From contig DAOMZR010000002.1 of the NCBI GenBank assembly GCA_035400585.1, positions 145,121 to 209,120 of the forward strand: a DNA stretch of 64,000 nucleotides, given 5' to 3'. This document shows positions 6,150 to 39,330 of this stretch, in pieces. This stretch comes from a bacterium. GTDB taxonomy: Bacteria > Patescibacteriota > Patescibacteriia > Patescibacteriales > UBA12465. The translations under genes were made by a program, and so were the position numbers. Each line of letters opens with the position of its first letter. Positions within the stretch are counted from its first letter, which is position 1. The notes under the pieces were generated by a model that worked only from the letters and a program-made list of their open reading frames with translations, was not told the DNA's origin and searched no databases.

Positions 6150-6176
6150 TATTGAAAAGATTGTTAAGATAAACAA

Positions 6177-6212
6177 AAAAAGACCAAAATATTTGGTCTT
6201 TTTTTTATTTTT
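6177..6212. terminator. Bidirectional rho-independent terminator between convergent clpP and the 375-aa gene
   Basis: The hairpin AGACCAAATATTTGGTCT sits between an A-run and a T-run (aaaaaagaccaaaatatttggtctttttttt). Confidence 0.45.
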
Positions 6213-6224
6213 AAAATCAAACCG

Positions 6225-7352
6225 TTATTTCAATTTAAAGGAGTTAATCATCATTCTAAAAATATTATAATAACTAGCCATTTTATTTTCTGGAAAACTA
6301 TAAACTATACTATAAACATTTTCTTTTTTATCATCGGTTAAATAAAATGAGTAAAAGTCAGAACTATAGACGCCAGACCAACCTTCTTTTTCTATAACTG
6401 ACAAAGAATCAGCCACTTCAAAGAATCTAGAAAAATACCAAGACTCTATATTTTTCTTATCTTCATTTTTTTCAACTAAAACTTGAATAAATGAACTATC
6501 ATCGATTAAGAAAATAACCGAGGTGCCATCGGACAGAGCTTTAATTTCAAATTTTTTAGGATAAAAAATATCATAAGAAAATGAACCGTTTGAATGCTTG
6601 TCAATGTTCGGATTGGTTGATATAGCCCCCTGACCAGCTGGATTGTATAAATTAGTAAGCTCTGTTAAATCATCATAACCATCGCTATCACTGTCTACAC
6701 TAATATTATTAGTGCCCAAAAGACTTTCCTCGTCATCGTTCAAACCGTCACCATCAGTATCTGAAAAAGAATCAAACATAATAACATCATCTTGATTGAT
6801 GTTTTCTTCAGTTGTTGTGTTGGTTTCATCGGAAGTGTCTGTATTAATTATATCACTTGAACTAGCAACGTCTGTTTCGTCAATAAAGGGCAACTCATCA
6901 ATTTCATTTTGCTCATTTGATTGTTCTTCTATAGTGTTTTCTTCCGAGATATTTTTGTTTTCCAGTTCTTCACTTACAATATTATTATTGGTTTTATTAA
7001 TGTTTGATAAAAAACTAAATGAAGGCATTTTCAGAGAAAAATTTTGAGGATCTTTAATATAAGAAAAAACTGCATAGGCCAAAAAGGCGACGATAATAAC
7101 ACCAAAAAAAACAATTAAAAAACCGATTTTTTTCCCTTGATGTTTTTTTTCTTGTTGATTTTTTTCTTCCAAAACTGATCCTGAAAAATTGTCTGCTGAA
7201 TCACTTTTTTTAACAGCTGTTTCGAACCTTCCTGACTTATAACCCTTTGGCATTCTGTGAACATTAAAAACAGGATTTTTAATTTGTTTTTTTTCAGAAT
7301 CAACTGAACCATCGCTAGAATTTTCCTTCTTTAAGTTCTTATCATCAATCAT
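6225..7352 (-). CDS. Membrane-anchored protein with an acidic region carrying thrombospondin type-3-like Ca-binding repeats
   Basis: The 375-aa ORF has a single TM (GFLIVFFGVIIVAFLAYAVF), an extracellular D/E-rich region with DTDGDGLNDDEE and DSDSDGYDD, and a C-terminal globular domain. It is a paralog of the adjacent 263-aa protein. Confidence 0.55.
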   Translation of the reverse strand: MIDDKNLKKENSSDGSVDSEKKQIKNPVFNVHRMPKGYKSGRFETAVKKSDSADNFSGSVLEEKNQQEKKHQGKKIGFLIVFFGVIIVAFLAYAVFSYIKDPQNFSLKMPSFSFLSNINKTNNNIVSEELENKNISEENTIEEQSNEQNEIDELPFIDETDVASSSDIINTDTSDETNTTTEENINQDDVIMFDSFSDTDGDGLNDDEESLLGTNNISVDSDSDGYDDLTELTNLYNPAGQGAISTNPNIDKHSNGSFSYDIFYPKKFEIKALSDGTSVIFLIDDSSFIQVLVEKNEDKKNIESWYFSRFFEVADSLSVIEKEGWSGVYSSDFYSFYLTDDKKENVYSIVYSFPENKMASYYNIFRMMINSFKLK

Positions 7353-7363
7353 AAATAATAAAA

Positions 7364-8155
7364 TTAAAGACTAAATTTTTCTACTAAATTTGAAAATTTT
7401 TGTTTAAACATCTCTAAATTTTTAAATAAAGAAGTATCTATAACGCCACCACCCAATGGATTGTAGCCACTGTTCATCTCTTGTCCATCAAGATAAGTGT
7501 CCCCGTCTGTGTCTTGGTTTAATGGATCGGTTCCAATTATCAATACTTCTTCAGAGTCGCTTAAACCATCACCATCAGAATCAGGATTATATAAATTGGT
7601 TTTGTAAGTGTATGTTTCGTCGTAATCACTAAGGCCATCGTTGTCGGAATCTAAGTTTTTTAAAACATCTTCTGGTGATGGTTCGTCGCCCATAATATCG
7701 TCACTACTCGTTGCTTCATTTTCATCTATTAAAATATTTTCGTCGACAACAGTTGAACCTTCTGGTTCTCGATTGTTGTTTTGTTCTTCATTTGTCTCAC
7801 TTTCTTCTTGATTAACATTTTGTTGATTTGTCTGTTCTAATGCTTGTTTGTTTTGCATTGATTTTGGCAGAAGAATCTGAGAATAAACAAAGTAAGCACC
7901 AGCGCCAATCAAGGCAATAACGATTATAAAAATAAACATTTTTTTCAAAATACCGCTGCTCTTTTTTTCATCATCATACAAAGATGAGTTGGAAATTTTT
8001 TCATTTTTCAAGCCGTTGCCTGAACTCATTGCTGGAGGTTGATTATTAATTTGATTTCTAAAATTTTGACCGATATTTTTACTAGCTGAATTTGGATCAG
8101 TGTCGGCAAAAATATCGTCAACTCCGTCCGATTTTTTTTGTAAATTGTCGAACAT
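7364..8155 (-). CDS. Membrane-anchored protein with thrombospondin type-3-like Ca-binding repeats
   Basis: The 263-aa ORF has a single TM (IFIIVIALIGAGAYFVY) followed by DSDNDGLSDYDE, DSDGDGLSDSEE and DTDGDTYLDGQE repeats of the form DxDxDGxxDxxE. Confidence 0.55.
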   Translation of the reverse strand: MFDNLQKKSDGVDDIFADTDPNSASKNIGQNFRNQINNQPPAMSSGNGLKNEKISNSSLYDDEKKSSGILKKMFIFIIVIALIGAGAYFVYSQILLPKSMQNKQALEQTNQQNVNQEESETNEEQNNNREPEGSTVVDENILIDENEATSSDDIMGDEPSPEDVLKNLDSDNDGLSDYDETYTYKTNLYNPDSDGDGLSDSEEVLIIGTDPLNQDTDGDTYLDGQEMNSGYNPLGGGVIDTSLFKNLEMFKQKFSNLVEKFSL

Positions 8156-8234
8156 AAAATTTTTATTAATTTTAACTATTTTTATTAATTAAATTATAGC
8201 ACAAAAGATGTTTATATAAAATAACTTATATAAA

Positions 8235-11200
8235 TTATTGAAAACACATATAAGAACCACCAGAATCGTAACAACCAAAATCAGCATAAACATGTGTGTC
8301 ACTGCTTATAGTAAAAGAACAATAAGGCTGAGAGCCAAAACATGGACCAGTCCAATTTTCAAAAACAGTAGGAGAATATGCTGAAGCTTCTAGGTTAATT
8401 GTTGAACCATTGTTGACAGTATATTCACACATAAAGTCGGTGCAATTTCCTTTATATGAACCATTTTCTTGTACTGAGACATTTGATCCATATTCATAAC
8501 CATTGATAAAAACAGTGAGTGTTCTAGGCATTGAAAGTGTCGTAAAATTAGCAACCAAACTACTGTAAGCAGTGCCGGCGCTGTTTATAGCATAGGCTCT
8601 AACATAATACATTGAACCAGGGGTTAGGCCGGTTATATTAGACGTAAACGCTCCAGTTCCACTACCACTAACAATTTTAGTGCCAGTGCTTGTTGTAGGC
8701 AAAGTACTAGTTTTAGAATAGACAACGCCTCTTTCTGTGACAGTTGCCCCACCATCACTGGTTACATTACCACCCGACACAGCTGATCCGGTAGTAATAC
8801 TGCTGGTCGGAGCAATGGTAACCGTAGGCAAAGTAACCGCGCTAACCCATTTAGCATACAAAGTTATATTAGATGTTTGATTATAAATGGTCGAAGAAGT
8901 ATATCGAGTACCAGTACCATTTATGCCAGTAAACCAATCACTAAACATGCTTCCACTTTTGGTTGGCGTTGGTAAAGTTCCAATGGCGGAATTATAAGTT
9001 ACAATCTTGCTACTTGGTAAAACACTTCCCCCATCAGCGTTAAAAGATATTGTATAAGTATTAGCTGTCCATTTAGCATACAAAGTCACGCTAGCTGTTC
9101 CCATCGTATAACTAGCTCCGTTAGAATAAATAACCGAGCCAGTAGAAGACGTTGCCCAACCAGCAAAAGAATAACCGGGCTTAACAAATTGATTAAGGGT
9201 CAAATTAGCACTAGCCCCACTAATTATAGATTGACTAGCCATAGTTCCAGTAGCTGAAGCGTCATTTTTATCAAAAATAACAGAGTAGGTTATTGGGGTC
9301 CATTTAGCATACAAAGTAACCGGACTAGTTGTCATGTCCCAAGTTCTAGCACTACTCATTGAATTTGTATAATATTGCGAACCCAGACCACCAGTCTGAT
9401 TGTAATAGCCACCGAAAGAATAACCACTTCTTACCGGAGAAATAGCTGTCGGCATAGCCGATCCATAAGTGGCAACAACACTGCCAGTTCCACTGGTTCC
9501 ACCCTGAGAATCTAAATTGACTGTACTTATGAAGGGCGTCCATTTAGCATAAAGTATTAATCCTGTGCTCGGTATTTGAATCACTGCATTTGGCAAATAA
9601 TTAGAACCAGTTCCATCGGTTTTTGTATTCCAACCGACAAAATTATATCCAGTTTTAACCAATCCACCCTGTCCAGCAATTGTTACATTGGTGCCAGTAT
9701 CTCCTGTTTGAGTTGCCGGAGCTGTCCCCCCAGTTTGACCGTTGCCATTGTAACTAACCGATGAAGTCGTTTTGGTTGTAAAAGGAAAAGTTGATCCATA
9801 AACCGTCCCGAAAGAACTAGTGATATAGGATTTAACTGAATATTCTATGCCAGGAAATAAATTAGACATAGTTAAGGAAAAAGATCCAGAACAAGAAGAA
9901 GAAACAACTTTTGTTTCCGAGACAAAATGACTAGAATCATTAGACCAATATATTAAACCGCACTCTGAAATAGATACATTGCTTGGATTTGAGATTGTCC
10001 CACCAGAAGTAGCCGATGAACTAGTTATATTACTTACATTGGTTGTTGATATACTAGGGGCAACTGGCAAAACAAAAGTTTTGGTATCGCTACTAACACC
10101 AACTCTATCTCCATAAGAATCTCTATTCATGGCAAAGGATTTAAAATAATAAGTCACTCCTGGAGTAAATTTGGAGACAGAAACGCCCTTGCTGAAAGTT
10201 CCAATAGCGTAAGGACTGTTGGCTAAAATACAATTATTAACGTTTAAACTACAAGCACCGATGTACGTTTCTAGAGATGAAGCTGAAGTGCTCCAAACAA
10301 AACCCATTGCTAAAATAGCACTACCAGAAACTAAATCACCGCCACCATTGTCTGACAAATATCCACTAAAATTAATATTTCCACTAGCCAAGGTTTGTTG
10401 ATTGACAGTTACAACCGGATAATCAGCTCTAGTTTTAAAACTTTTGGTTGCTCCGTAAGAAATGCCTGCCTGATTAACCGCATAAGCTCTATAATAATAT
10501 AGATAATTTCTAGTTAAATCGGAAAGTGTGTGTATGTAAGAAGAATTGTCGGATATAGATGCTTCATAGCTACAACCATTATTAGACGCACAAGAGGAAA
10601 CATTAGCAATGCTCAAATTTGAAGATGCTGGCGAGGTTACACATCCTCTACCGCCAACATAATTGCCACCAGCAGATATTATGCGCCCGTTGCATTTAAA
10701 AGAATTCGAGGTTACGTCGGAATGAGATACCGTTTCTACCTCCGGTTTAGTAAAAACACTAAAATTATGAGTACCCTCGCTAGACATTCCAAAGCTATTG
10801 GTAATTTTAGCTTTTATGGTTTTTGCCCCCAAAGAATTAGCTACGCCAGATAAAGTTTTATTAGCAGCGCTAAAAGTTAAAAAACTTGGTTTTTCAATTA
10901 TATCTACTGTAATATATTCGCCCGGCTTGCTAGAAGATATCTCACAACTATAATTATTATTTAGAGCCACCGAATTAGAGCAGTTGTTAAAAACTATACT
11001 TGGAACATCGGCTGTAAAAGTAATATTAAAATTAACTGAGGTTTGCGCTTGATGAGGGTCTTTGGCTGTAATTTTAAAACGATGAGTACCAACGTGGCTA
11101 GAATTAAAAACATTAGGAGTGTTTATCGAATATTTGTTTTTAATCACTAAGGAATAGCTCTCTTTATTAGCATCTAAAATAGATAAAACCATTACCAACT

Positions 11201-12980
11201 TATTGTTAAATAAAGCGCTTCCAGTAAATTCAACTAATTTATCGACGTCAGGTTTTATTTCCCAAGTATTTACGCAATTATTTGATAAGTCTAATTGACA
11301 AACTATTAATGTTTGTAATTTACTCTTGTCGTTTATAGAGATTGGAAAAGAGAAGTCCTGACCAGAACTAAGATTACTGCTGTAGTTTGAACTAACCTGA
11401 ACTGAAGGATTTTGATTAGCTATATATATCGGAAAATTTTTGATTGTTTCATATCCAGAAGAATTCTTAACTGAAACTCCAATAATATATCTTTTGTTTT
11501 TTTCCTGAACAGTAGGAGAGTCTATTGGTTGAGAATCACCGGCAATAGTAGATTTTAATAAAATTGTTTCATCAGAATTAGTTAATTCACGAGCTGGATA
11601 TTTGTTTGGCGTCCAACTGGACCAGTTCGATTCAGAGCAATCGGTTATAATTGTATTATCTGGGTAAAGCGGTTTTCCTGGTATGCAACCAGAAACAACC
11701 CAACTAAGTGCTTGATCTCTTGGATCTTTAGCTTTTATATATCCCTCGAAAGAAGTCCCACTATGACCAGTCATTAAGGCTTCTTCGAAATAGGGGTTAT
11801 TATATTGTGGTAATTCATCATCCACTGGAATGTATGGAGGATTAAAGTCATCAGTGTTTTCACCAGATGGCAAGGTAAAAGATTCACCCCAATATTCTGA
11901 TGATTCCATTGGAGAATAAATACTAGCCGATAAGCCCTTCGGATCACTTACATAAGAAAAAACTGAACTGTATTCTGGTAAAACAAAATTAGTATAATTA
12001 ACTGGCTTTTCAGTACTTAAAAACACCGCCTTGTCATTTTCCCAACAAGTTAGAAGATCAAAATTTGAATTTTCATCATAGCAAGAACTTATTCTATTAA
12101 TAGAGTCGGTAACACCGGAAACGCTAATTTGGTTTAAAAATGTTTGCTGCCAACTTGGCCAAGAAGAAATAGCCACATAAGGAACATAGGTTCCGGACGA
12201 TAAAATAGGGTAGTGACCATTTAAGTTTTTATAAGCTTCTAATTTTGTTTTGATTATTTTTAATTTTTCCAATCTTTCCACATCTCTAATCAGCATTGAT
12301 TTTGGACTATCACAAAAAAGATTGTTTGGACAATCAGAATCTAATAAACAAGCCGGGGTATTGACTGGTTCTTTATTATAGTCATCTTCTTTTATTATAC
12401 ATCTGTTTTTTTGGTATATTTTCCCAACAACATTTACTTCCGAAGAGTCATTTAACAGGTGAGCTGAATCCTGCCCAACATAACCGCCACAAATATAACC
12501 ACTGGGACAATCTGTTTCTGACTTACAAATTTTACTAGAAATACTACAATGACCAATTTTATCTTTTAAGTTAGTATTCAATTTCCAATTTTTCAAAATT
12601 TTTCCAAAAATATCGATGGTATTATCATCAGCTTCTTGGTTATAAGAAATTAAATAAATATTAAAATAGATTTTATTATTTTCTAAATCAATATTAGCGG
12701 CTGAAATATATACAGTTCTGCCATCTCGAATTGCCTTATAGCCATCAACTATTAAAGACTGCGGGGATCCAGTAAACCCTTGCATTTTATACCATTGTTG
12801 AATGTTATAATTTTCCGGGTTTGGAATGACACGAATAGCAATAGCATCTGGGTCGTTTTCACCCAAAGAAGAAACACTGTCCTCTGAACTTGGTGCGGCC
12901 AAAACAAAAAGAGGAAGTATTAAAAAAAATAATAATACAAAAAAGCTTTTAAAAAAATTTACTCTCATTTTTTTAAACAT
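8235..12980 (-). CDS. Giant secreted surface protein (1581 aa) with FN3/Ig-like domains and four or more C-terminal Listeria-Bacteroides (Flg_new) repeats
   Basis: It has an N-terminal signal peptide (FFVLLFFLILPLFVLAAPSS). Modules ending in LYAKWT recur four times (GYNFVGWNTKTDGTGSNY..LYAKWT, GYSFGGYYNQTGG..LYAKWT, GYSFAGWATSSTG..LYAKWT, ..LYAKWV), which matches the Flg_new/List_Bact repeat pattern. Confidence 0.7.
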   Translation of the reverse strand: MFKKMRVNFFKSFFVLLFFLILPLFVLAAPSSEDSVSSLGENDPDAIAIRVIPNPENYNIQQWYKMQGFTGSPQSLIVDGYKAIRDGRTVYISAANIDLENNKIYFNIYLISYNQEADDNTIDIFGKILKNWKLNTNLKDKIGHCSISSKICKSETDCPSGYICGGYVGQDSAHLLNDSSEVNVVGKIYQKNRCIIKEDDYNKEPVNTPACLLDSDCPNNLFCDSPKSMLIRDVERLEKLKIIKTKLEAYKNLNGHYPILSSGTYVPYVAISSWPSWQQTFLNQISVSGVTDSINRISSCYDENSNFDLLTCWENDKAVFLSTEKPVNYTNFVLPEYSSVFSYVSDPKGLSASIYSPMESSEYWGESFTLPSGENTDDFNPPYIPVDDELPQYNNPYFEEALMTGHSGTSFEGYIKAKDPRDQALSWVVSGCIPGKPLYPDNTIITDCSESNWSSWTPNKYPARELTNSDETILLKSTIAGDSQPIDSPTVQEKNKRYIIGVSVKNSSGYETIKNFPIYIANQNPSVQVSSNYSSNLSSGQDFSFPISINDKSKLQTLIVCQLDLSNNCVNTWEIKPDVDKLVEFTGSALFNNKLVMVLSILDANKESYSLVIKNKYSINTPNVFNSSHVGTHRFKITAKDPHQAQTSVNFNITFTADVPSIVFNNCSNSVALNNNYSCEISSSKPGEYITVDIIEKPSFLTFSAANKTLSGVANSLGAKTIKAKITNSFGMSSEGTHNFSVFTKPEVETVSHSDVTSNSFKCNGRIISAGGNYVGGRGCVTSPASSNLSIANVSSCASNNGCSYEASISDNSSYIHTLSDLTRNYLYYYRAYAVNQAGISYGATKSFKTRADYPVVTVNQQTLASGNINFSGYLSDNGGGDLVSGSAILAMGFVWSTSASSLETYIGACSLNVNNCILANSPYAIGTFSKGVSVSKFTPGVTYYFKSFAMNRDSYGDRVGVSSDTKTFVLPVAPSISTTNVSNITSSSATSGGTISNPSNVSISECGLIYWSNDSSHFVSETKVVSSSCSGSFSLTMSNLFPGIEYSVKSYITSSFGTVYGSTFPFTTKTTSSVSYNGNGQTGGTAPATQTGDTGTNVTIAGQGGLVKTGYNFVGWNTKTDGTGSNYLPNAVIQIPSTGLILYAKWTPFISTVNLDSQGGTSGTGSVVATYGSAMPTAISPVRSGYSFGGYYNQTGGLGSQYYTNSMSSARTWDMTTSPVTLYAKWTPITYSVIFDKNDASATGTMASQSIISGASANLTLNQFVKPGYSFAGWATSSTGSVIYSNGASYTMGTASVTLYAKWTANTYTISFNADGGSVLPSSKIVTYNSAIGTLPTPTKSGSMFSDWFTGINGTGTRYTSSTIYNQTSNITLYAKWVSAVTLPTVTIAPTSSITTGSAVSGGNVTSDGGATVTERGVVYSKTSTLPTTSTGTKIVSGSGTGAFTSNITGLTPGSMYYVRAYAINSAGTAYSSLVANFTTLSMPRTLTVFINGYEYGSNVSVQENGSYKGNCTDFMCEYTVNNGSTINLEASAYSPTVFENWTGPCFGSQPYCSFTISSDTHVYADFGCYDSGGSYMCFQ

Positions 12981-12987
12981 AAATTTA

Positions 12988-15900
12988 TTAAGATATTTTT
13001 ATTAAAGAAAAGTCATCAATATAAAAATCACTACCGAGAGCAACCGTATCGGCATAACTTAGAGTTATAGCAAATTCCATCATTTTAGTATAATCACTTC
13101 TTAGCCATAAAGACATTTTGTCATTATATTCAAAAGTTTGAAAATAAGTTTGCCAGTCAACATAGTTGCCAGCCAATATATTTTTAGAAACAACGCCGGT
13201 ATAGCATTTAGTTTGAGCTGGTGATTGAACACAACAATAATTAGCTTGTTCTGAGCAAGGATATCCTCTTCCGCTAGCACAAGGATTTTGTCCCTCAAGA
13301 GGTGTCGGACTGAGCGCTCCATTTAACCAGACAAATGGCGATCTCAGGGCTGTTGGAGAAGACATGGCCATACACTGGCTAGACCAGCCAGAAGAGGGGG
13401 AAATATTAACAGTTATTTCTCCAACAGAATTACCTTTATAGTTAAACTTAACTGCGTATTTTTCGTTTTGTTTAAAATTCAAAGACAAAAGATTATATTT
13501 TAAACTAGCCCAAACAACTCTATTGGTATTCATCCAACAAAAACTCTCTCCTTCTTGATATATGGCTGGGGCTGTTTTTTTACAATCATCAGCATTGCTA
13601 AATCTGCAAGTTTTGTTTACATTGTCCCAAGTGCAACCAGACATGCTACTACAAAGAGCCTGGCCACATTTGCCAGGATAAACGTGTCCCGATTCTTGTT
13701 TAATCAGAACGCTTTTGTTTCCGGAGTTACTAGTCAAATTGCTAACCCCAATTGAAGAATATGTTTTCAGGGATTTTGACCATCCCGGTGGCAAACCGCT
13801 AATATCAACCGATTCAAAATCAATATTGTCAAATATATACTTAAACAAACTCACCGTTGGATCATTAAAATAAACAAAAACCTCTGATGATTTTTCACTT
13901 TCTTCTCCAGCTGGATTGATGGAACTTATAACAAAATAGAAAGTATCGTTTTGAGTTCCGGCCAAGCTGATAGTCACCTCAGTTGAATTATTTTGTGTTA
14001 AAATAGAATTACCATAAACACCAGAAACAGCACCCCTATAAACTTTATATTTAGAAACTTCACTGGCAGGAGCAGTCCAAGAAACTTTTATTAAACGATC
14101 TTCGTGAGAAAGTATTTCAACTTTTGGACTGGTTGGTTTATCGGAAATATTTGAACTAGTCGGGGTAACAGAAACAGTAGAAGAAAAACCAGTTTCAGCT
14201 AAATTTTCACTTAAAGCGGTTATTTTTATTTCATAAGAAATATAATTGGTAAGGTTGCTCAAAGTATAACTACATTTATATTTGTTATCTTCAATAGTGC
14301 AAACATTTGCTGGATCTACAACTTCTTCTTTATAAACACTCTCTTCGTTTGTTTTATAGTAAATTTTATACTTATCAACTAAAGAAGTTTCTGACTCCCA
14401 GATAATTTCAACCTCCCCTCCGTCTCCCGTGTCGTTAGATGAGATAGAATTAACAAATCTAGGAATTCTTTCTTTAAAGAAATAAGCTTCCTTCAAAAAG
14501 TTAGATATACAAAGTCCGCCCGCAGGGCAATCACCATCATTAGAACAAATTCTGCTAGGCAAATTACTACAAGTTCTTATTGGGCTTTCTCCTTTAATAA
14601 TTGCTAAGTTACTTAAAAACGCTGGAAGATCATCACTGGTTGTGTCTTCTCCAGAATCACGACAGTAGTAAAATTCATAATTATAATAACCAAAGGAACT
14701 GTCGGAATCTCTCCAAGGAGACCAAGTTCCATCATTTTTAACTGGCGGCCAAGGATTTTTACAAACAAAAACGTAAGCCATAACATTGCCAGCTGTGTTG
14801 TTGCCATCTAAAATAGTATTGGTATCGTCCATTTTTACTTTAGCAGCTATTGTAGTTTGAGCATCGCTAACATTTTCTTGAACAGCTATTAATCTTTTAT
14901 CACCATTTGTCGACCAAGAAACAACTTCGTCCTTAAATCCCAAAACGTCTTGAGATCCAATTATCCAATCCCAAGTCCAAGAATAGCCTAAGACTGGTTT
15001 TAAAATCTGATTATCTTTTGAAAGAGCATAAGAATAATATGCTTTATCATAATCTTTCTCAGAATCAAAAGTACTGCTATTTGAATCGTTGTCATTCTCT
15101 TTTATACTGTTTGTATTTTCAGGAAATAAATACGAATCTGGTGAAATCAAAACTTTATCAACGCTACATATTCCCCCTTGATCGGCTGGAGTATTCATAG
15201 TCGTAAATGAGAAAACGTGAGAGTTGACAAAATTTAAATTATTAAATCTTAAACGATTATCATCTCCCTCAACCCAGCTGGTATCGGAAATTTTATACCC
15301 ACGTCCGTTCATTCCAACTCCTTGATAGTTAAGTATACCGCTGGTACTGTCAAGCGCGGAATCACCTTTTACAACCACAAAATATTTTGCGCTTTCTTTT
15401 AATAAAGATTTTGGCTGAAAAATAGCCACCGTTGTTCCATCCGGATTATTTCTAAAATCAGTTGTGCCTAAAACAGAACAATAAATCTTGTCGCTAGAGG
15501 TTATATCCCCTACAACTCCAGCCAAGACATCAATTTTAAATACTCTGCTCAAATAATATAAAGGTTTTTTTATTAAATTTTTTAATTTTTCAAAAATAGT
15601 TAAATCGTTTTTGTAGCTTATAAAATATGTACCAGAAGAACAAACTGAGGAGTTTTCTTCTAATAAAAGAATGTTGTCTACAAAAGACATGTTATCCATT
15701 TTTTGATCAAAAGTAATAGAGATTGCTGCATTATGGCAAACTCCTTGTTGTTCGTTTGTCGGAGATGTTTCCGTAATGTTCGGCCTAGCCTGACAACAAG
15801 TATCAAAACCACAACCAACATTTTCTGGGTCTAAACCAGCGCTTGTACAGTCGGTGTCAGAACCACAACCACAACACAAACCTCTTTCTTGTCCAGAGCA

Positions 15901-18900
15901 ACTACCTTTGTCTCTATAACAAGAAAGTTTTTCGTTTATAGCTGAACACTGATCTGTGGCTGCATCAGGATCACAGCAACAAAAACCACAATCAGGGGCA
16001 GCACCCAATAAACCTGTATCAGTTAAACAATCTAATCTATTGCAAACATCGGAACAAACAGTTGTGGTGGTTGAGATATTATTAGCACAACTTTCGCCAA
16101 AACCAGCCGAAGAATCTTTACACGAACTGGTGCATATATCTAATTTCAGATATTTGCCGGTTGTGTTTGGATAATTAATGGCACAAAGATTATTGGTTGT
16201 ACTACAATCATATCTTTTACAATAGCCAACACTGCCACTAGTTTCGCCCACTTCAAACCTATCGCCAGAAGAACAAACAGAATATTTAGCATCCCAACAA
16301 CAACTATTATTAGAGACACACTCTGTAGCTGATGTTAGTTGTTTACAATTTTCATTACAAGATTTATCACAAGATTCTTTTGTTTTATAATCGCCAACAA
16401 CAGAAATGTTGTTGGAGCAAACTGTTGGATCCGAAGAGTCACAACTATAATAAGGACAATAGCCAATACTCGGAGAGCTACTTCCCCAAACAGAACTATC
16501 ACTAGCACCACCACGACAAACTCCCTCTACCTGATCCCAACAACAAGTCGTGTTATGTGCTTTACAAGAATCTTCACCTAAAGATGTACAATCCAAACAA
16601 GCACCAGTTGGATATTGTGTATTAACTTCACAATATTTTCCACTAGTACCAACACAATTACAAGCAAGATCATTTACCTGTGGTTGATTTTCGTCTATAT
16701 TACAACCACTGCATACGCCAAAATTTGTATTTTCAGTTCCAGGATTAGCACTAATTCCACAAGAATAAGAACAAACCAAAGGAGAGCAACAGGCAGGATT
16801 TCCGGTGCTAGTATTTTTATCTATTTCACAACAACATTGACAGGCGGGTTTGTCCGCCTTGATACATTTGTCATTAATACAGTTAGATCCACTAGGACAT
16901 AGCTTAGGAGAGGAACAAGTTCCGTCAGTAGAACAAACTGAATCACCAGAACAGATAGAACAAGTTGACGGTGATTCAATAGAAGCTACATCAATACATT
17001 TTCCACTAGAAATCATCGTCCATTGAACTCCATCAATTTTTGGACATAATGTATTTACAGATATTTCATAAAAGCTTTTTTCGCCAACCCCTTCTAGAGA
17101 ATATTTTTTACAAACAGCAATTTTGTTTTCCACACCAACGCCTTCTCCTAAATCATAGGAAACTGTTTTTGAACATGTCTGACCAGTAACAACACATTTA
17201 TCCGATTCCGCTAAATACTGGCAACTTTGACCATTGGTGCCACAATAAGAAAAAGAGGAGCAGTCTTGTTTGCAAACACCGACCTCAATTAAATTTTCTC
17301 CATTATATGAAGAACAAAGACCAGGGGAGTTTGGACAAACATAGCCCGTTGGACAAAAATTATAACTAGCACAACTAAAAATGTTGTCGTCTTCTTCTAT
17401 GTCAGTTGAATCAAAGCCAGTGTCAAATCCCCATTCAAAAACAGAGCTTTCTGGAGAACCGCTCAAACAATCATTAACATTAACGACACAAGCCCCTGGG
17501 TTAGTGGTTTGAGAACCACAACAAATTTCTCCGCTTAAACAATCTGAATTACTGGAACAAGATTTAACATTAAAATTTAAGCCATTACCAAGTAGCCCTC
17601 CTCGAGAAATTTTAACCGGACCAGTAATAGAATCTAAGGCCACTAGAGACTCTGATTTATCAGCTCCATCCTCAGAAACAACATTCAAATTGTTACTTGT
17701 TTTATTAAAATTAAAAATCGCTTTTGTGTCTTTTCCGCTTTCCTTAAAATATTCTCCCCAAAAAGAAACTTTTGTTGTGCCAGCTGGTCCGGAGTAAGGA
17801 CTAATTTTGCACAAACTTGGAAGAAGTGGGTAAGTGGAACTAGCCACAAAAGAATCTGTTGAAAGGATATCTTCCCATGTTCCTATTTTAAGTTTCAATT
17901 TATAATCAGAATTATTATAATCAATATTTTCTGGAACTTTTACTATTATTTGATCATCTTTCCAAACGGAATGCAAACAAACTAAAGGAAAATCAAAGCT
18001 AGCATTTATATCGCTACCATTATAAAAATAAACTTGACTATCACCTCTGCTGGCCCCAAACCCTGAACCATAAATACTAACATACTGACCGGACTTGCCA
18101 ATACTTGGCTCAAAAAAAGATATAGATGGTGCTTTTGGTGGTTCTGGTAATTTTTTAAAATCGATAAAATTACTTGGAACACTTGATGTTAGTTTTTTAG
18201 CAAAAGTACTAGTGTCTCCAGTTTTTAAATTTGGGGCAATTATTGTACCCGAAAGATCATTATTAAAAACATTAGGAGTAAAGCCAGAAACATTATTAGA
18301 ATAATTACCAAAATAAGCTTTACTATCATTAAGATTAACTCCATAATATAAAACTGAATCATTGGCCTTGGCTTCGGCTGGATTTATTCTACATAGCCCG
18401 GGGCGACTGATCGAATTTATTTTTATTGGAACAACCTGAGGACCATTTTCATCATCGCTACGATCTCTTTTTCCAGAAGCAGTAACAACCTCAACTGCAA
18501 CATTATCTGAAGGATTAAACCCGGTTGGAACCGCTACTATTATTTGAGTATTAGACCAAGTGTTTCCACAATAAGAATTAACCGAAGAAGGCATTATTCC
18601 GGCAACAAGAGAGTTGTTTGCTTGATTAATAAAATTAACACCAGAAAGAATTTCATTGTATTCGTCAAAATTATAGCCTTTAATTGTTACAAAATTTCCA
18701 GTGGCAGCATTAGGTGTTGTTATGTCACAAATACCGCTGGAACAATCATCATCTTGAGCACAAACTTTATTAATGTCATCTTGGCAAAAACCACCCAAAG
18801 GATTTATTCCTGTTACAACTGGACTGCCAGCACAAACACAAGACTCGCAAGTTAATCCATGACTTGGATTACAAATGCCTTCGCTTTGACAAGCTCCTGT

Positions 18901-19719
18901 TAATCCATCACCACAAGGTTCTCCTAATTCAGAAAAATTTTCTTCTTCTTCGCTAGGAGATTCGCAGGTGCAAGTATTAGCATTACAAACTAAATTTGGG
19001 TTTGAACAAGTTGGCTCAGCCTCATTATCACAAACACCGTTTGTTGTTTGACCGCAAGGATCACCAACCCCTTCTTGTACACATTTACATTCGTTATTAC
19101 AAAAAAGATTAGAATTACAAAGAGTGTTATCAGGAAGACAAGAATTTCCCAAACCAGAACTACACCACGAACCCTCACTTCCGGGTAAACAACTAGATCC
19201 AACACAAACTCCCCATTTATTATCAGAACAAGTTGAAATTCCTCCACAACCACAAGATTTGATGGAACCACTTTCACAATAAGTACTGCTGTTTATTCCC
19301 GTTGCATCACCTAACTGATTAAAAATTAAAGTTGTTATTCCCCAGGCAGACAAAATAATAGCCAAACCTATGGCACCCGATTTTAATATTCCCTTGGCTT
19401 TCGTTATTTTTTCTTCATTACCCTCCGACCTCATCCAAACAAAACCGCCGTAGATAACTATAGCTACGGCAATTATTCCTAAAATACTAAGAGAAACATT
19501 TATTATTTGTGAGGCTATTGTTCTGGGATCTCTGTCTGATAGATTTAATTCATTACCAACAAAACCTTGACCAAAATTATCTCCTTCTGAAGCCAAAACA
19601 TTAAAACTAAAAACACCAAAAAAAAGAAATAATAAAAGCAGAAAAAACGAAATTTTTCTTGAAATTTTTTTTCTATCAAACATAAAAAAATAAGACAATA
19701 TTTCTAAGATCTCTAGCAA
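12988..19719 (-). CDS. Giant cysteine-rich cell-surface protein (2243 aa) with an N-terminal membrane anchor, EGF-like Cys-rich arrays and FN3 domains
   Basis: It is a continuous 6.7-kb ORF. The N-terminus has TM helices (FFLLLLFLFFGVFSF; ILGIIAVAIVIYGGFVW; GAIGLAIILSAWGITTLIF), followed by long C-x-C-rich tracts (..CNCVGTSGKYCE..CLDCTSLGEDSC..) and C-terminal FN3-like modules (KYKIYYKTNEES.., KVSWTAPASEVSKYKVY). Confidence 0.7.
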   Translation of the reverse strand: MLEILEILSYFFMFDRKKISRKISFFLLLLFLFFGVFSFNVLASEGDNFGQGFVGNELNLSDRDPRTIASQIINVSLSILGIIAVAIVIYGGFVWMRSEGNEEKITKAKGILKSGAIGLAIILSAWGITTLIFNQLGDATGINSSTYCESGSIKSCGCGGISTCSDNKWGVCVGSSCLPGSEGSWCSSGLGNSCLPDNTLCNSNLFCNNECKCVQEGVGDPCGQTTNGVCDNEAEPTCSNPNLVCNANTCTCESPSEEEENFSELGEPCGDGLTGACQSEGICNPSHGLTCESCVCAGSPVVTGINPLGGFCQDDINKVCAQDDDCSSGICDITTPNAATGNFVTIKGYNFDEYNEILSGVNFINQANNSLVAGIMPSSVNSYCGNTWSNTQIIVAVPTGFNPSDNVAVEVVTASGKRDRSDDENGPQVVPIKINSISRPGLCRINPAEAKANDSVLYYGVNLNDSKAYFGNYSNNVSGFTPNVFNNDLSGTIIAPNLKTGDTSTFAKKLTSSVPSNFIDFKKLPEPPKAPSISFFEPSIGKSGQYVSIYGSGFGASRGDSQVYFYNGSDINASFDFPLVCLHSVWKDDQIIVKVPENIDYNNSDYKLKLKIGTWEDILSTDSFVASSTYPLLPSLCKISPYSGPAGTTKVSFWGEYFKESGKDTKAIFNFNKTSNNLNVVSEDGADKSESLVALDSITGPVKISRGGLLGNGLNFNVKSCSSNSDCLSGEICCGSQTTNPGACVVNVNDCLSGSPESSVFEWGFDTGFDSTDIEEDDNIFSCASYNFCPTGYVCPNSPGLCSSYNGENLIEVGVCKQDCSSFSYCGTNGQSCQYLAESDKCVVTGQTCSKTVSYDLGEGVGVENKIAVCKKYSLEGVGEKSFYEISVNTLCPKIDGVQWTMISSGKCIDVASIESPSTCSICSGDSVCSTDGTCSSPKLCPSGSNCINDKCIKADKPACQCCCEIDKNTSTGNPACCSPLVCSYSCGISANPGTENTNFGVCSGCNIDENQPQVNDLACNCVGTSGKYCEVNTQYPTGACLDCTSLGEDSCKAHNTTCCWDQVEGVCRGGASDSSVWGSSSPSIGYCPYYSCDSSDPTVCSNNISVVGDYKTKESCDKSCNENCKQLTSATECVSNNSCCWDAKYSVCSSGDRFEVGETSGSVGYCKRYDCSTTNNLCAINYPNTTGKYLKLDICTSSCKDSSAGFGESCANNISTTTTVCSDVCNRLDCLTDTGLLGAAPDCGFCCCDPDAATDQCSAINEKLSCYRDKGSCSGQERGLCCGCGSDTDCTSAGLDPENVGCGFDTCCQARPNITETSPTNEQQGVCHNAAISITFDQKMDNMSFVDNILLLEENSSVCSSGTYFISYKNDLTIFEKLKNLIKKPLYYLSRVFKIDVLAGVVGDITSSDKIYCSVLGTTDFRNNPDGTTVAIFQPKSLLKESAKYFVVVKGDSALDSTSGILNYQGVGMNGRGYKISDTSWVEGDDNRLRFNNLNFVNSHVFSFTTMNTPADQGGICSVDKVLISPDSYLFPENTNSIKENDNDSNSSTFDSEKDYDKAYYSYALSKDNQILKPVLGYSWTWDWIIGSQDVLGFKDEVVSWSTNGDKRLIAVQENVSDAQTTIAAKVKMDDTNTILDGNNTAGNVMAYVFVCKNPWPPVKNDGTWSPWRDSDSSFGYYNYEFYYCRDSGEDTTSDDLPAFLSNLAIIKGESPIRTCSNLPSRICSNDGDCPAGGLCISNFLKEAYFFKERIPRFVNSISSNDTGDGGEVEIIWESETSLVDKYKIYYKTNEESVYKEEVVDPANVCTIEDNKYKCSYTLSNLTNYISYEIKITALSENLAETGFSSTVSVTPTSSNISDKPTSPKVEILSHEDRLIKVSWTAPASEVSKYKVYRGAVSGVYGNSILTQNNSTEVTISLAGTQNDTFYFVISSINPAGEESEKSSEVFVYFNDPTVSLFKYIFDNIDFESVDISGLPPGWSKSLKTYSSIGVSNLTSNSGNKSVLIKQESGHVYPGKCGQALCSSMSGCTWDNVNKTCRFSNADDCKKTAPAIYQEGESFCWMNTNRVVWASLKYNLLSLNFKQNEKYAVKFNYKGNSVGEITVNISPSSGWSSQCMAMSSPTALRSPFVWLNGALSPTPLEGQNPCASGRGYPCSEQANYCCVQSPAQTKCYTGVVSKNILAGNYVDWQTYFQTFEYNDKMSLWLRSDYTKMMEFAITLSYADTVALGSDFYIDDFSLIKIS

Positions 19720-19787
19720 TCAAATTTTAACACAATTACAGCAATAAGTAAACAAATTAATTCATTAATTTTTCTTTTTAAAAAATG

Positions 19788-20534
19788 TTAAAAAATGAAC
19801 TTGTCAGCCAAGCTTCTGGCGACCTCTAATTCTTCAGGACTATTAACCCCAACAGCCTCTTCTGGTTCAACCTGAGAAAAACCAATAACAATTTTTTGAT
19901 TAAAAGCTATTTTAATTAAGTCGGTTAAATAATATTCGCTTTGATTATTATTGTTTTTAAGATTAATAATATTCTCAAACAACCATTTTTTATTAAAGCA
20001 AAAAAGGGCAGGATTAACATCTTTTATTTCTTTTATAGAATCTCCGGCATCTTTAAATTCGATTATTTCCTTAATTTCATTGCCGTTTTTAATGATTCTT
20101 CCCCAATAATAAAAATTTTTTCTCCAATCTTCAAAATCATTAACATTAACCGTCATCATTGAAACCTCAGATTTATGATTTTCAATTAATCTGTTTATAG
20201 AACTTTCTTTGTAAAAAGGATGATCGCCGTAAAGAACTATGATGTTTTCAACATTATCTTCTATTAATTCCTTAGCACTTAAAACAGCATGCCCCGTTCC
20301 TAGTTGTTCGGTTTGAATGGCATATTGTATGTCATAATTGTTTAAAGATTCAGATATTAATTTATGATTGTCTGGTGAAACAACCACTATTGGGGGAAGG
20401 TCTACCTTTGATTTTATAACTGAATTTATTAAATATTCTATCATTGGTCTGCCATTAATCGGCGATAAAACCTTTGGAATGTCAGAGTTCATTCTCTTGC
20501 CTTTACCGGCAGCTAAAATAATAACTTTATTCAT
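19788..20534 (-). CDS. Sugar-1-phosphate nucleotidyltransferase, stand-alone GlmU N-terminal-domain-like (UDP-GlcNAc pyrophosphorylase-like)
   Basis: The 248-aa ORF has VIILAAGKGKRMNSDIPKVL, QTEQLGTGHAV and VLYGDHPF, nearly colinear with the GlmU N-domain. It has no LbH acetyltransferase domain. Confidence 0.7.
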   Translation of the reverse strand: MNKVIILAAGKGKRMNSDIPKVLSPINGRPMIEYLINSVIKSKVDLPPIVVVSPDNHKLISESLNNYDIQYAIQTEQLGTGHAVLSAKELIEDNVENIIVLYGDHPFYKESSINRLIENHKSEVSMMTVNVNDFEDWRKNFYYWGRIIKNGNEIKEIIEFKDAGDSIKEIKDVNPALFCFNKKWLFENIINLKNNNNQSEYYLTDLIKIAFNQKIVIGFSQVEPEEAVGVNSPEELEVARSLADKFIF

Positions 20535-20537
20535 ATT

Positions 20538-21938
20538 TTATTGTAAATTAATAGATATTTCTTTAAGAAGGTTTAATGCTTTTTCTTTACTTGGTGCTTC
20601 ACAATAAATTCTAATAATCGGCTCTGTGTTAGATTTTCTTAGATGAACCCAAGATTTTTCTTTAGAAAAAACAATTTTTAAACCGTCGGACTTGGAAATC
20701 TCTAAGCCCTTGTATTTTCCCTCTATTTTATCAAACATTATATCAATATTCAAGCCTTTTTTAAGCTCAATCTTATGTTTAATTAAAAAATATTTTGGCA
20801 AACCATCTTTTAATTCAGATGCTTTTATTTTTAAACTACTTAAATAACTCAAAAATAAAGCGACACCAATTAAAGCATCTCTACCATAATGAAATTCTGG
20901 AAAAATAATTCCGCCATTTCCCTCGCCACCAATAACAGCTTTTTGTTTTTTCATTTCAGCCACAACATGCACTTCTCCCACTGGAGAAAAAAAACATTTC
21001 CCACTAAAATTTTCACTAACATCCCTTAAACCCAAAGAAGAGGATAAATTGGAAACAGTAACTTTTTTATATTTATTTTTAAATAATTTATAATTTTCTA
21101 AAACATATTTGGCAACTGAAATTAAAGTATTTTCTTCGCCAAAATAAACACCACGTTCATCAACAAACGACAGACGATCAACGTCTGGATCAACTGCTAT
21201 ACCTAGATCAGCTTTATTTTTTTTAACGGCCTTAAAAAGTTGTTTTAAATTTTGGTCTATCGGCTCTGGATTATGATTAAATTTTCCATTTATGGTTTCG
21301 TTAATAACAACAATATCTTTAATGCCCAAATTTTCTAACAACCTTTTAATTGCCAAGGAGCCGACAGAATTTATTCCATCAACCACTATTTTAAAATTTC
21401 TTTTTTTTATTGCCCCTTTTTTAATTAATGGTAGTTTTAAAATTTTTTTTATATGTATATCAGTATAAAAATATTTTTTTTCTATTTTACCTATGTTATC
21501 AATTGAAACAAAGGAAAAATTTTTTTCTTGAGCAATTTTTAAAACCATCTCACCCGAGTCTTTGCTTATAAACTCTCCTTTATTGTTTAAAAGTTTTAAA
21601 GCGTTCCACTCTTTTGGGTTGTGTGAGGCAGATATTATTATACCACCATCGGCTTTTTCCTCTACAACGGCAATTTCCACTGTTGGAGTGGATGCTAAAC
21701 CAATATCAACAACATCTATTCCTAAAAATATTAAACTGTTAATAACCAGATTAATAAAAGACTCTCCGCTAATACGGCCGTCTCGACCAACAACAATTTT
21801 GGCTTTTTTGTTTTTTTTTGTTTCCTTGATAAACTCACCGAAAGACAAGCAAAAATTTAAAAAATTTTGTGGGTTTAAATTATCATCGCCAGAACCAATA
21901 GTTCCTCTTATTCCCGATATAGAAGAAATTAAAGGCAT
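20538..21938 (-). CDS. Phosphohexomutase (phosphoglucosamine mutase-like)
   Basis: The 466-aa ORF has GIRGTIG, the active-site-Ser loop ISASHNPKEWNALK, and the GIAVDPDVDR metal-binding loop. Confidence 0.8.
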   Translation of the reverse strand: MPLISSISGIRGTIGSGDDNLNPQNFLNFCLSFGEFIKETKKNKKAKIVVGRDGRISGESFINLVINSLIFLGIDVVDIGLASTPTVEIAVVEEKADGGIIISASHNPKEWNALKLLNNKGEFISKDSGEMVLKIAQEKNFSFVSIDNIGKIEKKYFYTDIHIKKILKLPLIKKGAIKKRNFKIVVDGINSVGSLAIKRLLENLGIKDIVVINETINGKFNHNPEPIDQNLKQLFKAVKKNKADLGIAVDPDVDRLSFVDERGVYFGEENTLISVAKYVLENYKLFKNKYKKVTVSNLSSSLGLRDVSENFSGKCFFSPVGEVHVVAEMKKQKAVIGGEGNGGIIFPEFHYGRDALIGVALFLSYLSSLKIKASELKDGLPKYFLIKHKIELKKGLNIDIMFDKIEGKYKGLEISKSDGLKIVFSKEKSWVHLRKSNTEPIIRIYCEAPSKEKALNLLKEISINLQ

Positions 21939-21942
21939 ATTT

Positions 21943-39035: not shown

Positions 39036-39330
39036 ATTTTTTATAAATTTAATATATATAAATTAATAACTATAATAAGGATTGTTGATAACTTTTATAA
39101 TTGGTTTTTTTCTATTTTTTTGTTGGTGTTTTTTTAAATTTTGCCTGTTAACTTTCTTGTTAATTTTTTCTGATTGAAGTATGATTTTTTGTTGATAAAA
39201 TATTTTTTATTTTTTTTATTAACATCTTTTAATTTTTTATTAATAGTTTTTACACAAAATATTTTTTATTTTTCAACCACCGATTAACAGTTTATTAATT
39301 TCTTTTTACTCTTTATTAACAAGTTGTTCG
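39036..39330. promoter_or_regulatory. AT-rich dnaA-dnaN intergenic region with DnaA-box-like motifs (candidate oriC part or DnaA-regulated promoter)
   Basis: TGTTGATAA (the reverse complement TTATCAACA has one mismatch to TTATCCACA) occurs at about 39084 and 39207. There are also multiple TTATTAACA/TGTTAAC-like repeats. Confidence 0.45.

Follow-up and report, generated by a model that had tools for sequence, protein, structure and literature searches.

The DNA analysed here is a stretch of 64,000 nucleotides of contig DAOMZR010000002.1 (the window). Between positions 6225 and 19719 its minus strand carries four consecutive genes, whose products are called G1 (the first giant), G2 (the 1581-aa protein), S1 (263 aa), and S2 (375 aa). 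A sequence-only reading of the window had described this arrangement, with gaps of about 80 bp or less and 7 bp between the two giants, and the list of open reading frames (ORFs) confirmed it: the G1–G2, G2–S1, and S1–S2 gaps measured 7, 79, and 11 nt, respectively. The two giants, put earlier at about 18% of the window, occupy 17.9% of it. It had also been proposed that the locus encodes envelope-exposed products only, and hydropathy analysis agreed. [quoted passage not shown] The features of the locus are collected in Table 1.

Table 1. Predicted genes, domains, and signals of the locus, by position in the window.
Feature	Position	Strand	Remarks
G1, as in the ORF list	12988–19719	minus	2243 aa from a TTG start
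G1, revised	12988–19683	minus	2231 aa from ATG; 134 Cys; conserved core of ~1900 aa, then a variable tip
G1 signal-peptide-like N-terminus	19585–19683	minus	MFDRKKISRKISFFLLLLFLFFGVFSFNVLA followed by SEG; cleavage site between them predicted from sequence alone
G1 VirB2-like T4SS_pilin two-helix membrane hairpin	19324–19524	minus	aa 66–132; K/R/E-rich loop between the helices
G1 Cys-rich region I	18700–19302	minus	aa ~140–340; 24 Cys in the 101–300 bins, mostly conserved
G1 IPT/TIG-type Ig-like repeats	17560–18699	minus	aa ~341–720; Pfam TIG at aa 531–614
G1 Cys-rich region II	15805–17559	minus	aa ~721–1305; ~95 Cys, nearly all invariant in the family
G1 Big_5/bacterial Ig-like stalk domains	14770–15804	minus	aa ~1306–1650; Pfam and predicted structure
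G1 signature segment	14485–14769	minus	aa ~1651–1745; C-x-NPWPP ... W ... YN[YF]xFYYCRD ... DDLPA
G1 tandem fibronectin type III (two FN3 domains)	13870–14442	minus	aa ~1760–1950
G1 variable tip	12991–13863	minus	aa ~1953–2243; unannotated module of ~290 aa
G2	8235–12980	minus	1581 aa, secreted; conserved N-terminal base and variable distal part
G2 conserved N-terminal module	11931–12848	minus	aa ~45–350; no Pfam family
G2 Ig-like (He_PIG/PKD-like) domains	10731–11483	minus	aa ~500–750; Pfam He_PIG E 3e-4, weak PKD profile matches
G2 Flg_new (Listeria–Bacteroides) repeats	8841–9728	minus	aa ~1083–1379; four copies
S1	7364–8155	minus	263 aa, single-pass membrane protein
S1 transmembrane segment	7868–7963	minus	aa 65–96
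S1 TSP3 Ca-binding repeats	7457–7660	minus	after an acidic linker
S2	6225–7352	minus	375 aa, single-pass membrane protein
S2 transmembrane segment	7053–7139	minus	aa 72–100; an acidic linker follows
S2 TSP3 repeats	6639–6767	minus	two TSP3-type motifs
S2 C-terminal PsbP-like domain	6228–6605	minus	PF01789 family matches
Terminator-like hairpin, bidirectional	6175–6205	.	stem of 14 bp; lies between the S2 and clpP stops, which converge
Promoter-like site	19724–19752	minus	TTTACT-17-TAAAAT, preceded by TG, directly upstream of G1; consensus match

The length of 2243 aa given earlier for the first giant is that of the ORF opened by TTG at 19719. The ATG at 19683 (MFDRKK...) is, however, the most likely start, because the resulting length of 2231 aa equals that of a homologue from an independent assembly (P0001), which is 99% identical, and because of the sequence upstream. 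Mis-assembly, repeat collapse, and frameshifted fragments had been named as outcomes that would undermine the locus. DNA-level tandem or long direct repeats were looked for across the locus and none was found. All four ORFs were intact, and of equal length, in an independently assembled sister strain (Logan ERR7570003, locus L087), and these artefacts are therefore ruled out. Open frames of such length could not have arisen by chance either, because at the GC content of the window (~30%) some 8% of random codons are stops by our own calculation.

A VirB2-like hairpin, overlooked by the sequence-only reading, is predicted at the N-terminus of G1. Behind the first hydrophobic segment (aa 19–45, TTG numbering), the protein matched PF18895 (T4SS_pilin, VirB2/TrbC-like pilins as typically found in Patescibacteria; T4SS, type IV secretion system) at E 6.3e-11, its 42.6 bits exceeding the cut-off of 26.6, over profile positions 6–71 of 71. 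The two helices lie at aa 67–97 and 115–134, and the charged loop between them is RSEGNEEKITKAKGILKSG. NCBIfam gave a weak, sub-threshold match of G1 to a mycoplasma integrative and conjugative element pilin-like protein. PF18895 was precomputed on nearly all of the 120 listed G1 homologues, and PF04956 also on one of them. No other part of G1 is conserved as well as the hairpin, whose mean column identity was 58%, compared with 28% for the whole protein, and in which Gly and Ala residues occupy invariant positions. Since two helices with a charged loop follow the signal peptide, the remaining ~2100 aa are expected to lie outside the cell.

A paralogue of ~900 aa is encoded directly upstream of G1 in 57 of 69 loci. 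In the one pair that was compared, it shared the hairpin alone with G1 (~55% identity). The sub-clade of the window is without this paralogue at that place, and PGM and NTP-transferase genes are found there instead. As the hairpin is both the best-conserved part of G1 and, in that pair, the sole part shared with the paralogue, a specific packing of the helices within the membrane may be argued.

We looked for other components of a T4SS around the hairpin. Among the window ORFs that were scanned, which were most of those with 100 aa or more, none encoded VirB4, VirB6, VirB3, or a coupling protein, and a profile of the G1 hairpin run against all six frames of the window gave no further pilin-hairpin ORF. 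Pfam tables for ±10 kb around six related loci held no T4SS genes. Membership of G1 in a T4SS locus is thus ruled out for the scanned window ORFs and for the flanks of the relatives. T4SS loci of the class ABY1 have been reported beside comF, recG, and radA, and none of these three genes is in the window. When the hairpin profile was compared with the solved T4SS pilins, no match was obtained at E ≤ 10. PF18895 pilins are expected to be small proteins made up essentially of the hairpin, whereas G1 has ~2100 aa beyond it.

The rest of G1 is read as a long stalk; the protein as a whole contains 134 Cys residues (6.0%). The two Cys-rich regions had been taken for EGF-like arrays. This could not be upheld: whole G1 matched no EGF family in Pfam at E ≤ 0.01, and the isolated Cys-rich segments (aa 140–350 and 700–1310) matched neither EGF nor any other Pfam family at E ≤ 1. 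An EGF-like identity is accordingly rejected at the level of sequence. The FN3 assignment, on the other hand, stood, with Pfam fn3 at aa 1770–1846 scoring E 3.4e-8 and 34 bits (cut-off 25). The family profile matched the tandem FN3 domains of titin, RPTP, and fibronectin, down to E 1e-18, and, among TIG domains, those of cyclodextrin glucanotransferases and of chain 8co1_Q2. Apart from the hairpin, the signature segment is the most conserved stretch of G1 (identity 0.59 in the 1651–1700 bin). Its DDLPA part is a low-confidence loop (pLDDT < 50) in the structure predicted from a 38-sequence alignment. Fold matches of the stalk were generic, being those of bacterial adhesin or surface-layer (S-layer) Ig-like domains, TIG, and FN3; the Ig-like matches included intimin, invasin, and Lig adhesins, and also SbsC, SbsB, and Sap. 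No enzyme fold was returned for the stalk by the domain and fold searches.

The G1 family comprises at least 227 clusters, nearly all of 1.8–2.4 kaa, that share the order PF18895, TIG, Big_5, and fn3. The motif [NG][YFI][EK][FL]YYCRD recovered G1 relatives in 144 species-representative genomes. When 29 sequences were aligned, aa ~50–1950 were conserved, including nearly all of the ~120 core cysteines, and the last ~290 aa were missing from most orthologues. This terminal module, for which no Pfam match was obtained at E ≤ 1, proved to be mobile. It is C-terminal in G1 of the clade of the window and in loci L011 and L012. In many other G1 orthologues (P0020–P0031, L041, L047, L066) it sits inside the protein, at aa ~300–585, just past Cys-rich region I. 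It is also C-terminal on the G2-type proteins L076, P0230, and P0371. G1 and G2 are therefore alternative display scaffolds for this module. Neither C-terminus (…DDFSLIKIS in G1, …GGSYMCFQ in G2) carries an LPXTG sortase signal, and the hydrophobic segments of both proteins are solely N-terminal.

In G2, the conservation is concentrated at the N-terminal end. Among 57 orthologues, aa ~45–350 were 50–65% identical, aa 500–750 were moderately conserved, and aa 750–1581 were mostly unalignable. The conserved N-terminal module (N-module) was modelled by AlphaFold2 with pLDDT 84.7 and pTM 0.83. The model appears to comprise a PsbP/Mog1/DUF1795-like subdomain and a second subdomain resembling a pilin head group, for which the structural scores were marginal; Foldseek found nothing for the model in the PDB. 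The N-module was present in 1358 proteins (1212 at E ≤ 1e-10) among 1.84 billion cluster representatives, almost always at residues ~30–330 of proteins of 0.9–2 kaa, which suggests a two-subdomain base of a new type. G2 has no class III (N_methyl) leader and no hydrophobic alpha1-N helix, and its signal peptide is an ordinary Sec one. A homology between this module and the G1 signature (aa ~1640–1745) was also considered. BLASTP looked suggestive (E 3e-5 over 61 aa), but profile–profile comparison gave just a 25-column Cys motif, and a focused profile–profile run returned Prob 14% in a different register; the homology was left as unproven.

The distal part of G2 contains the Flg_new repeats that had been read from its sequence. 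Four stretches matched PF09479 with E 3.6e-38 and 130 bits against a cut-off of 27 (TIGR02543, E 2.3e-16), and a short DNA motif recurs in this region every 222–231 nt. The repeats lie in a lineage-specific part of the protein that is gapped in most orthologues and also holds FN3-like domains, whose fn3 matches stayed below the cut-off (23.6 bits). G2 homologues form at least 437 clusters with differing C-terminal domains (FISUMP, VWA, He_PIG, LamG). Flg_new occurred in one of the 120 listed homologues, in the variable C-terminal part, and the domain combination with Flg_new, on which the sequence-only reading had laid stress, is thus no defining trait of the locus. The parts of the cassette that qualify as swappable tips by comparison of the relatives are the Flg_new repeats of G2 and the last ~290 aa of G1, both of them lineage-specific.

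S1 and S2 had been described as two membrane proteins with TSP3-like Ca sites, and profile searches bore this out. S1 matched TSP3_bac (PF18884) in two stretches with E 3.5e-14 and 52.7 bits (cut-off 25). S2 of the window scored 18.6 bits, yet 42 of 52 members of its family matched, with a best E of 1.7e-11. In this test of S1 and S2, the TSP3-type motifs DTDGDGLNDDEE and DSDSDGYDDLTE were readable in the sequence. By homology, the repeats of both proteins are predicted to bind Ca2+. PsbP (PF01789) matched 21 of the 52 S2 family members (best E 3.9e-6); S2 of the window, at E 0.013, was below the Pfam cut-off. When the S2 profile was run against PDB sequences, cyanobacterial PsbP (2xb3) was second best, with E 0.087. 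The S2 family as a whole comprises 71 clusters.

The cytoplasmic N-terminus of S1 carries a motif MF[DE]xL…VDDIFA[DE][TS]D in 55 of 71 orthologues; it reads MFDNL...VDDIFADTD in the window (aa 1–25, 8080–8155, minus strand). A cytoplasmic motif H-x-M-P-K was likewise noted in 40 of 68 S2 orthologues (aa ~32–38, 7240–7260, minus strand). The conserved elements of the locus are the hairpin, the Cys-rich core of ~1900 aa, the N-module of G2, and the two TSP3 membrane proteins, one of which is PsbP-like.

The sequence-only reading had suggested that locus synteny be compared across related genomes. ORFs were called in 86 related loci and classified with the window proteins, and the 56 that extend 7 kb or more downstream of the giant were taken as informative. 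The order G1-G2-S1-S2, with fixed orientation, was found in 43 of the 56; nine had G1-S1-S2 without G2, and four were minor variants. An S1 gene stood behind G1 or G2 in essentially all of them, and clpP came next after the cassette in 45. The flanks vary by clade, with PGM–NTP genes as opposed to relA and the paralogue upstream, and clpP–secDF as opposed to ybeY, dagK, and ftsA downstream. That the cassette stays contiguous and co-directional although its flanks vary argues against mere frozen synteny. In most other lineages (L003, L006, L012, and others) the G2–S1 and S1–S2 gaps are wider (median 407 and 214 nt, respectively) and hold extra small ORFs of ~60–105 aa without Pfam match, which have no counterpart in the gaps of the window.

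The genes had also been read as one unit. The kept gene order is in line with this, as is the single strong terminator-like hairpin after S2, which is likely, from its sequence, to mark the 3′ end of the transcription unit. No comparable hairpin was found in the three internal gaps. For promoters the scan was uninformative: the AT-rich region gave 72 promoter-like matches, barely above the 58.6 ± 9.2 of shuffled sequence.

Selection was assessed against the sister strain. The pN/pS ratios were 0.07 for G1 (31 aa differences), 0.08 for G2, 0.11 for S1, and 0.09 for S2, compared with 0–0.09 for neighbouring housekeeping genes. All four genes are functional and under purifying selection. Diversifying selection on the tips was not seen between these two close strains, and the tip pN/pS of 0.52 rests on two substitutions and is meaningless. 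Synonymous divergence from the sister strain over window positions 1–30500 was mosaic (0–0.43). The NTP-transferase gene and the first ~700 codons of G1 showed a value of 0, and 0.26, 0.31, and 0.43 were obtained for Cys-rich region II of G1, S2, and clpP, respectively. Such a mosaic suggests recent homologous recombination in the population.

The named homologues belong mostly to Candidatus Falkowbacteria (Patescibacteria/Parcubacteria group) and lie on contigs or chromosomes of 0.6–1.0 Mb. The source of the window is a tiny-genome groundwater bacterium, a Patescibacterium of the Falkowbacteria type. The sequence-only reading had supposed a streamlined and probably host-dependent bacterium; the first part is borne out by these homologues, while attachment to a host is presumed.

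We hold with moderate confidence that the locus is a vertically inherited four-gene cassette of Falkowbacteria-type Patescibacteria that most likely encodes a membrane-rooted, Ca2+-stabilised surface fibre or adhesin complex. From the Pfam match and hydropathy, G1 would be exported by Sec and, after cleavage of its signal peptide, held in the cytoplasmic membrane by the VirB2-like hairpin, probably with the N-terminus out, the loop in, and the C-terminus out. Its ~2100 aa would project as a TIG/Ig-like/FN3 stalk, presumably extended, with two Cys blocks stabilised by disulfides or metal. The stalk would end in the swappable module of ~290 aa; its domains, the conservation of its cysteines, and the mobility of the module are direct results of the comparisons above. 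G2 would be secreted and dock to a presumed partner through its PsbP-like and pilin-head-like N-module, and it would present a lineage-specific binding tip, here FN3-like and Flg_new domains, which accords with the conserved base and the variable tip that were observed. S1 and S2, as bitopic proteins, would bind Ca2+ through their extracellular TSP3 repeats. Homology and strict co-occurrence suggest that these two proteins, with the PsbP-like domain of S2, provide a platform close to the membrane on which G1 and G2 are held or assembled, and the cytoplasmic N-terminal motif of S1 may link the complex to an intracellular partner. The targets of the distal modules may be structures on the surface of a host or partner cell. 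A host-attachment or cell–cell interaction apparatus was what the sequence-only reading had proposed; the adhesin-like build, with its Ig-like, TIG, and FN3 stalk and variable distal modules, fits that proposal, but attachment to a host is what we infer from this build.

Several observations weigh against such a fibre. The clpP, secDF, and Wzy_C genes are as syntenic as the cassette, so its co-occurrence may partly reflect general conservation of gene order. The tips show no diversifying selection and few strain differences, which is unlike a host-range arms race, though the strains are very close. The hairpin profile has no sequence similarity to any solved T4SS pilin. Finally, a core of ~35% identity, fixed length, and ~100 invariant cysteines suits a structural element of the envelope equally well. 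In that event, which we judge to be unlikely, the products would build an S-layer-like sheet or wall scaffold, with G1 as pillar or lattice, S1 and S2 as Ca2+-dependent tethers, and G2 as an outer component, and a cell with a minimal wall would depend on the cassette for its integrity or shape. The strong purifying selection on the conserved core agrees with this, as do TSP3 repeats, which suit a Ca-dependent lattice assembly, and the setting of the cassette, throughout the lineage, among core genes for the envelope and for cell division (secDF, clpP, Wzy_C, prepilin peptidase, ftsA, ftsZ). S-layer proteins are, however, typically Cys-poor, and the Cys content of G1 is atypical for them. The swapping of distal modules (FISUMP, VWA, LamG, Flg_new) is typical of ligand-binding adhesins and not of lattice proteins, and the Ig-like fold matches are generic, with intimin, invasin, and Lig adhesins among them. 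The Pfam hits included no SLH domain, and the S-layer likeness is that of generic Ig-like domains (SbsC, SbsB, Sap). It is also conceivable, though quite improbable, that frozen gene order has kept together four unrelated surface proteins that form no complex. The equal synteny of clpP, secD, secF, and the Wzy_C gene would favour this, and co-transcription is judged just from gene spacing and the terminator scan. Against it, G1-(G2)-S1-S2 is contiguous and co-directional where the flanks differ by clade, G1 and G2 exchange the same module of ~290 aa, and putative PsbP-like folds are common to S2 and G2.

The hairpin itself admits a different interpretation, in which G1, together with the ~900-aa paralogue found elsewhere, is the true subunit of a T4SS-type pilus. 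The hairpins would be extracted by a VirB4-type machine encoded elsewhere and polymerise alone or with small pilins. Given outward pilin C-termini, the stalks would decorate or cap the filament, with S1, S2, and G2 in accessory or tip roles. We consider such a pilus improbable. Equally doubtful is a related filament, in which the hairpins of G1 and the paralogue may be polymerising modules and a T4SS-type pilin bundle is the shaft or base; each subunit would contribute a disulfide-rich stalk of ~2000 aa and a swappable module, G2 would dock via its N-module, and S1 and S2 would form a Ca2+-dependent base. The solved structures of F- and T-pili have the two termini of the pilin on their outer surface, and F-pilin tolerates C-terminal peptide fusions, which counts in favour of a pilus. 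The PF18895 match is above threshold over nearly the whole profile, the hairpin is unusually well conserved, and the tandem genes that share it recall the pilin arrays of Patescibacteria. According to the available portions of the literature, T4SS and VirB2-like pilins occur widely among Patescibacteria, and Southlakia requires them (PMC12102498, PMC10633639, PMC12857230). A pilus is disfavoured by the lack of VirB4, VirB6, VirB3, and coupling-protein genes in the scanned window ORFs and within ±10 kb of the six related loci, by the lack of a second pilin-hairpin ORF in the six frames of the window, and by the absence from the window of comF, recG, and radA, the reported T4SS neighbours in ABY1. 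The solved pilins show no sequence similarity to the hairpin, and an extension of ~2100 aa per subunit is sterically hard to fit into a tightly packed helical pilus.

The cassette was compared with systems already known. In the Patescibacteria T4SS papers, as far as their available text goes, VirB2-like pilins were detected with PF18895, occur in arrays of 2–11 pilin genes, and are essential in Southlakia (PMC12102498, PMC12857230, PMC10633639). Like PF18895 pilins, for example those of Southlakia epibionticum, G1 has a signal peptide and then a two-helix hairpin above threshold. The tandem hairpin-sharing genes of its relatives recall the arrays of 2–11 genes that the accessible part of PMC12102498 reports. 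The profile of these pilins has 71 positions, whereas G1 has 2231 aa, ~2100 aa of predicted extracellular domains, and no adjoining VirB4, VirB6, or other T4SS genes. Pilin arrays average ~25% identity in that accessible part (PMC12102498), compared with 58% column identity for the G1 hairpin. Giant hairpin-anchored proteins are not mentioned in the portions of the T4SS literature searched (PMC12102498, PMC12857230, PMC10633639). The type IV pilins and the pseudopilins of type II secretion systems (EpsG/GspG) are a different comparison: G2 differs from them in having a Sec signal, no N_methyl leader, no alpha1-N helix, and no sequence match, and the structural scores were marginal.

The giant RTX, LapA, and MpIBP adhesins of Gram-negative bacteria, which are stabilised by Ca2+, combine a very long stalk built of Ig-like repeats with modules for ligand binding at its distal end or close to it, and their binding domains are swapped in a modular way. 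The cassette resembles them in its predicted long Ig-like stalk, putative distal binding modules, predicted use of Ca2+, and module swapping. It differs in that no RTX or type I secretion signal was found among its Pfam hits, and in its predicted Sec export, its hairpin in the cytoplasmic membrane, and its monoderm cell. Moreover, the predicted Ca sites of the cassette are on separate small TSP3 proteins and not in the stalk, and its Cys content is extreme. TSP3 repeats are also common to S1 and two Myxococcus proteins, CglD of the gliding adhesion complex and MtsD of cell–cell cohesion (NCBIfam, E 1.8e-6 and 2.7e-5). These matches are confined to the repeats, with 26 bits against a cut-off of 400, and S1 is a small bitopic protein and not a lipoprotein of >600 aa. 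As to the PsbP/Mog1/DUF1795/DcrB/LpqN fold, to which S2 of the window has a sub-threshold match, no function can be transferred from PsbP or Mog1 because the fold is a generic interaction platform.

Among Patescibacteria, giant surface proteins with adhesion domains have repeatedly been proposed as host-recognition factors, according to the available text of PMC4736985 and PMC13059738. The Cys-rich proteins of Peregrinibacteria and the very large proteins of Absconditicoccaceae described there are of >1500 aa, have signal peptides or transmembrane segments and Cys or adhesion domains, and have been proposed to act in attachment (PMC4736985, PMC13059738). They belong to other lineages, and neither a VirB2-like anchor nor a conserved four-gene cassette is described for them in that text. 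The epibiotic growth of a cultured Saccharibacterium requires adhesins and VirB2-like pilins (PMC10633639, in its available part). No description of the G1-G2-S1-S2 cassette was found in the accessible portions of the literature searched, which held just general statements on large surface proteins and small pilin arrays. The cassette is apparently undescribed, and kin to the giant modular surface proteins of Candidate Phyla Radiation (CPR) bacteria; it is set apart by the hairpin anchor, by two conserved modules without annotation, and by two small proteins as obligate partners.

Other genes of the window deserve mention. Downstream of the cassette lie clpP (convergent), secD with a peptidyl-prolyl isomerase insert, secF, and the gene of a Wzy_C protein; upstream are nucleotide-sugar genes, a methyltransferase gene, recQ, and folD. 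In SecD (3483–5417, minus strand), a PpiC-type isomerase (Rotamase/Rotamase_3, aa 171–274) is inserted in the P1 region. This fusion, which is kept in the relatives L001 and L087, would tie the export of the large secreted proteins from the neighbouring genes to a foldase. The Wzy_C protein is of the O-antigen-ligase or O-oligosaccharyltransferase type (670 aa, 444–2456, minus strand), and the nucleotide-sugar genes (19788–22815, minus strand) encode an NTP transferase, PGM/PMM, and a UDP-glucose dehydrogenase-like protein. Ser and Thr together make up 19–24% of G1 and G2. This gene layout and the Ser/Thr richness are hints of glycosylation of the giants. A dnaN–dnaA pair (37911–40791, minus strand) falls at the minimum of the cumulative GC skew, and the window is therefore taken to span the replication origin; the cassette lies ~20–33 kb from dnaA.

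A type IV pilin gene located at 26281–27402 on the minus strand encodes an N_methyl leader and, at the C-terminus, a FISUMP (Fib_succ_major) domain. It is split by one in-frame TAA (26725–26727; …GKLY*WSSAM…) into ORFs of 225 and 143 aa, and it is wholly absent from the sister strain, where the spacing between the SHMT gene and folD is 98 nt. It may represent a variable adhesin-pilin that was acquired recently or is in decay. Its FISUMP module is the one that forms the tip of G1 and G2 in relatives. In the relative L001 (ENA ERZ15185028, a 600-kb contig), a pair resembling a diversity-generating retroelement (DGR), namely a bAvd accessory protein and a reverse transcriptase, is encoded at 1–1683, directly upstream of the SHMT gene. 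It is near the spot where the window has the interrupted pilin–FISUMP gene, on the other side of SHMT. No DGR-like element was found at the corresponding position in the window.

A large part of bacterial diversity belongs to the Patescibacteria, which presumably live attached to other cells; the contact molecules are known in just a few cultured Saccharibacteria. The cassette takes up ~1.5% of a genome of ~0.6–1 Mb. Its importance to the organism is suggested by the relatives in at least 144 species-level genomes, by purifying selection, and by the combination of a pilin hairpin with a giant stalk of ~100 invariant cysteines and exchangeable tips. The result widens the possible meaning of VirB2-like pilin matches in Patescibacteria genomes, and the N-module of G2, with no Pfam family so far, and the mobile tip of ~290 aa merit family definitions. 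If the cassette does encode an attachment organelle, the hairpin, the YYCRD/DDLPA signature, the N-module of G2, and the TSP3 proteins would be the targets for further work. Should the hairpins instead prove to be polymerising pilins, the cassette would represent a previously unseen surface filament and a second use of T4SS pilins, independent of a T4SS locus, and it might supply the long-sought identity of some of the pili-like appendages on CPR cells.

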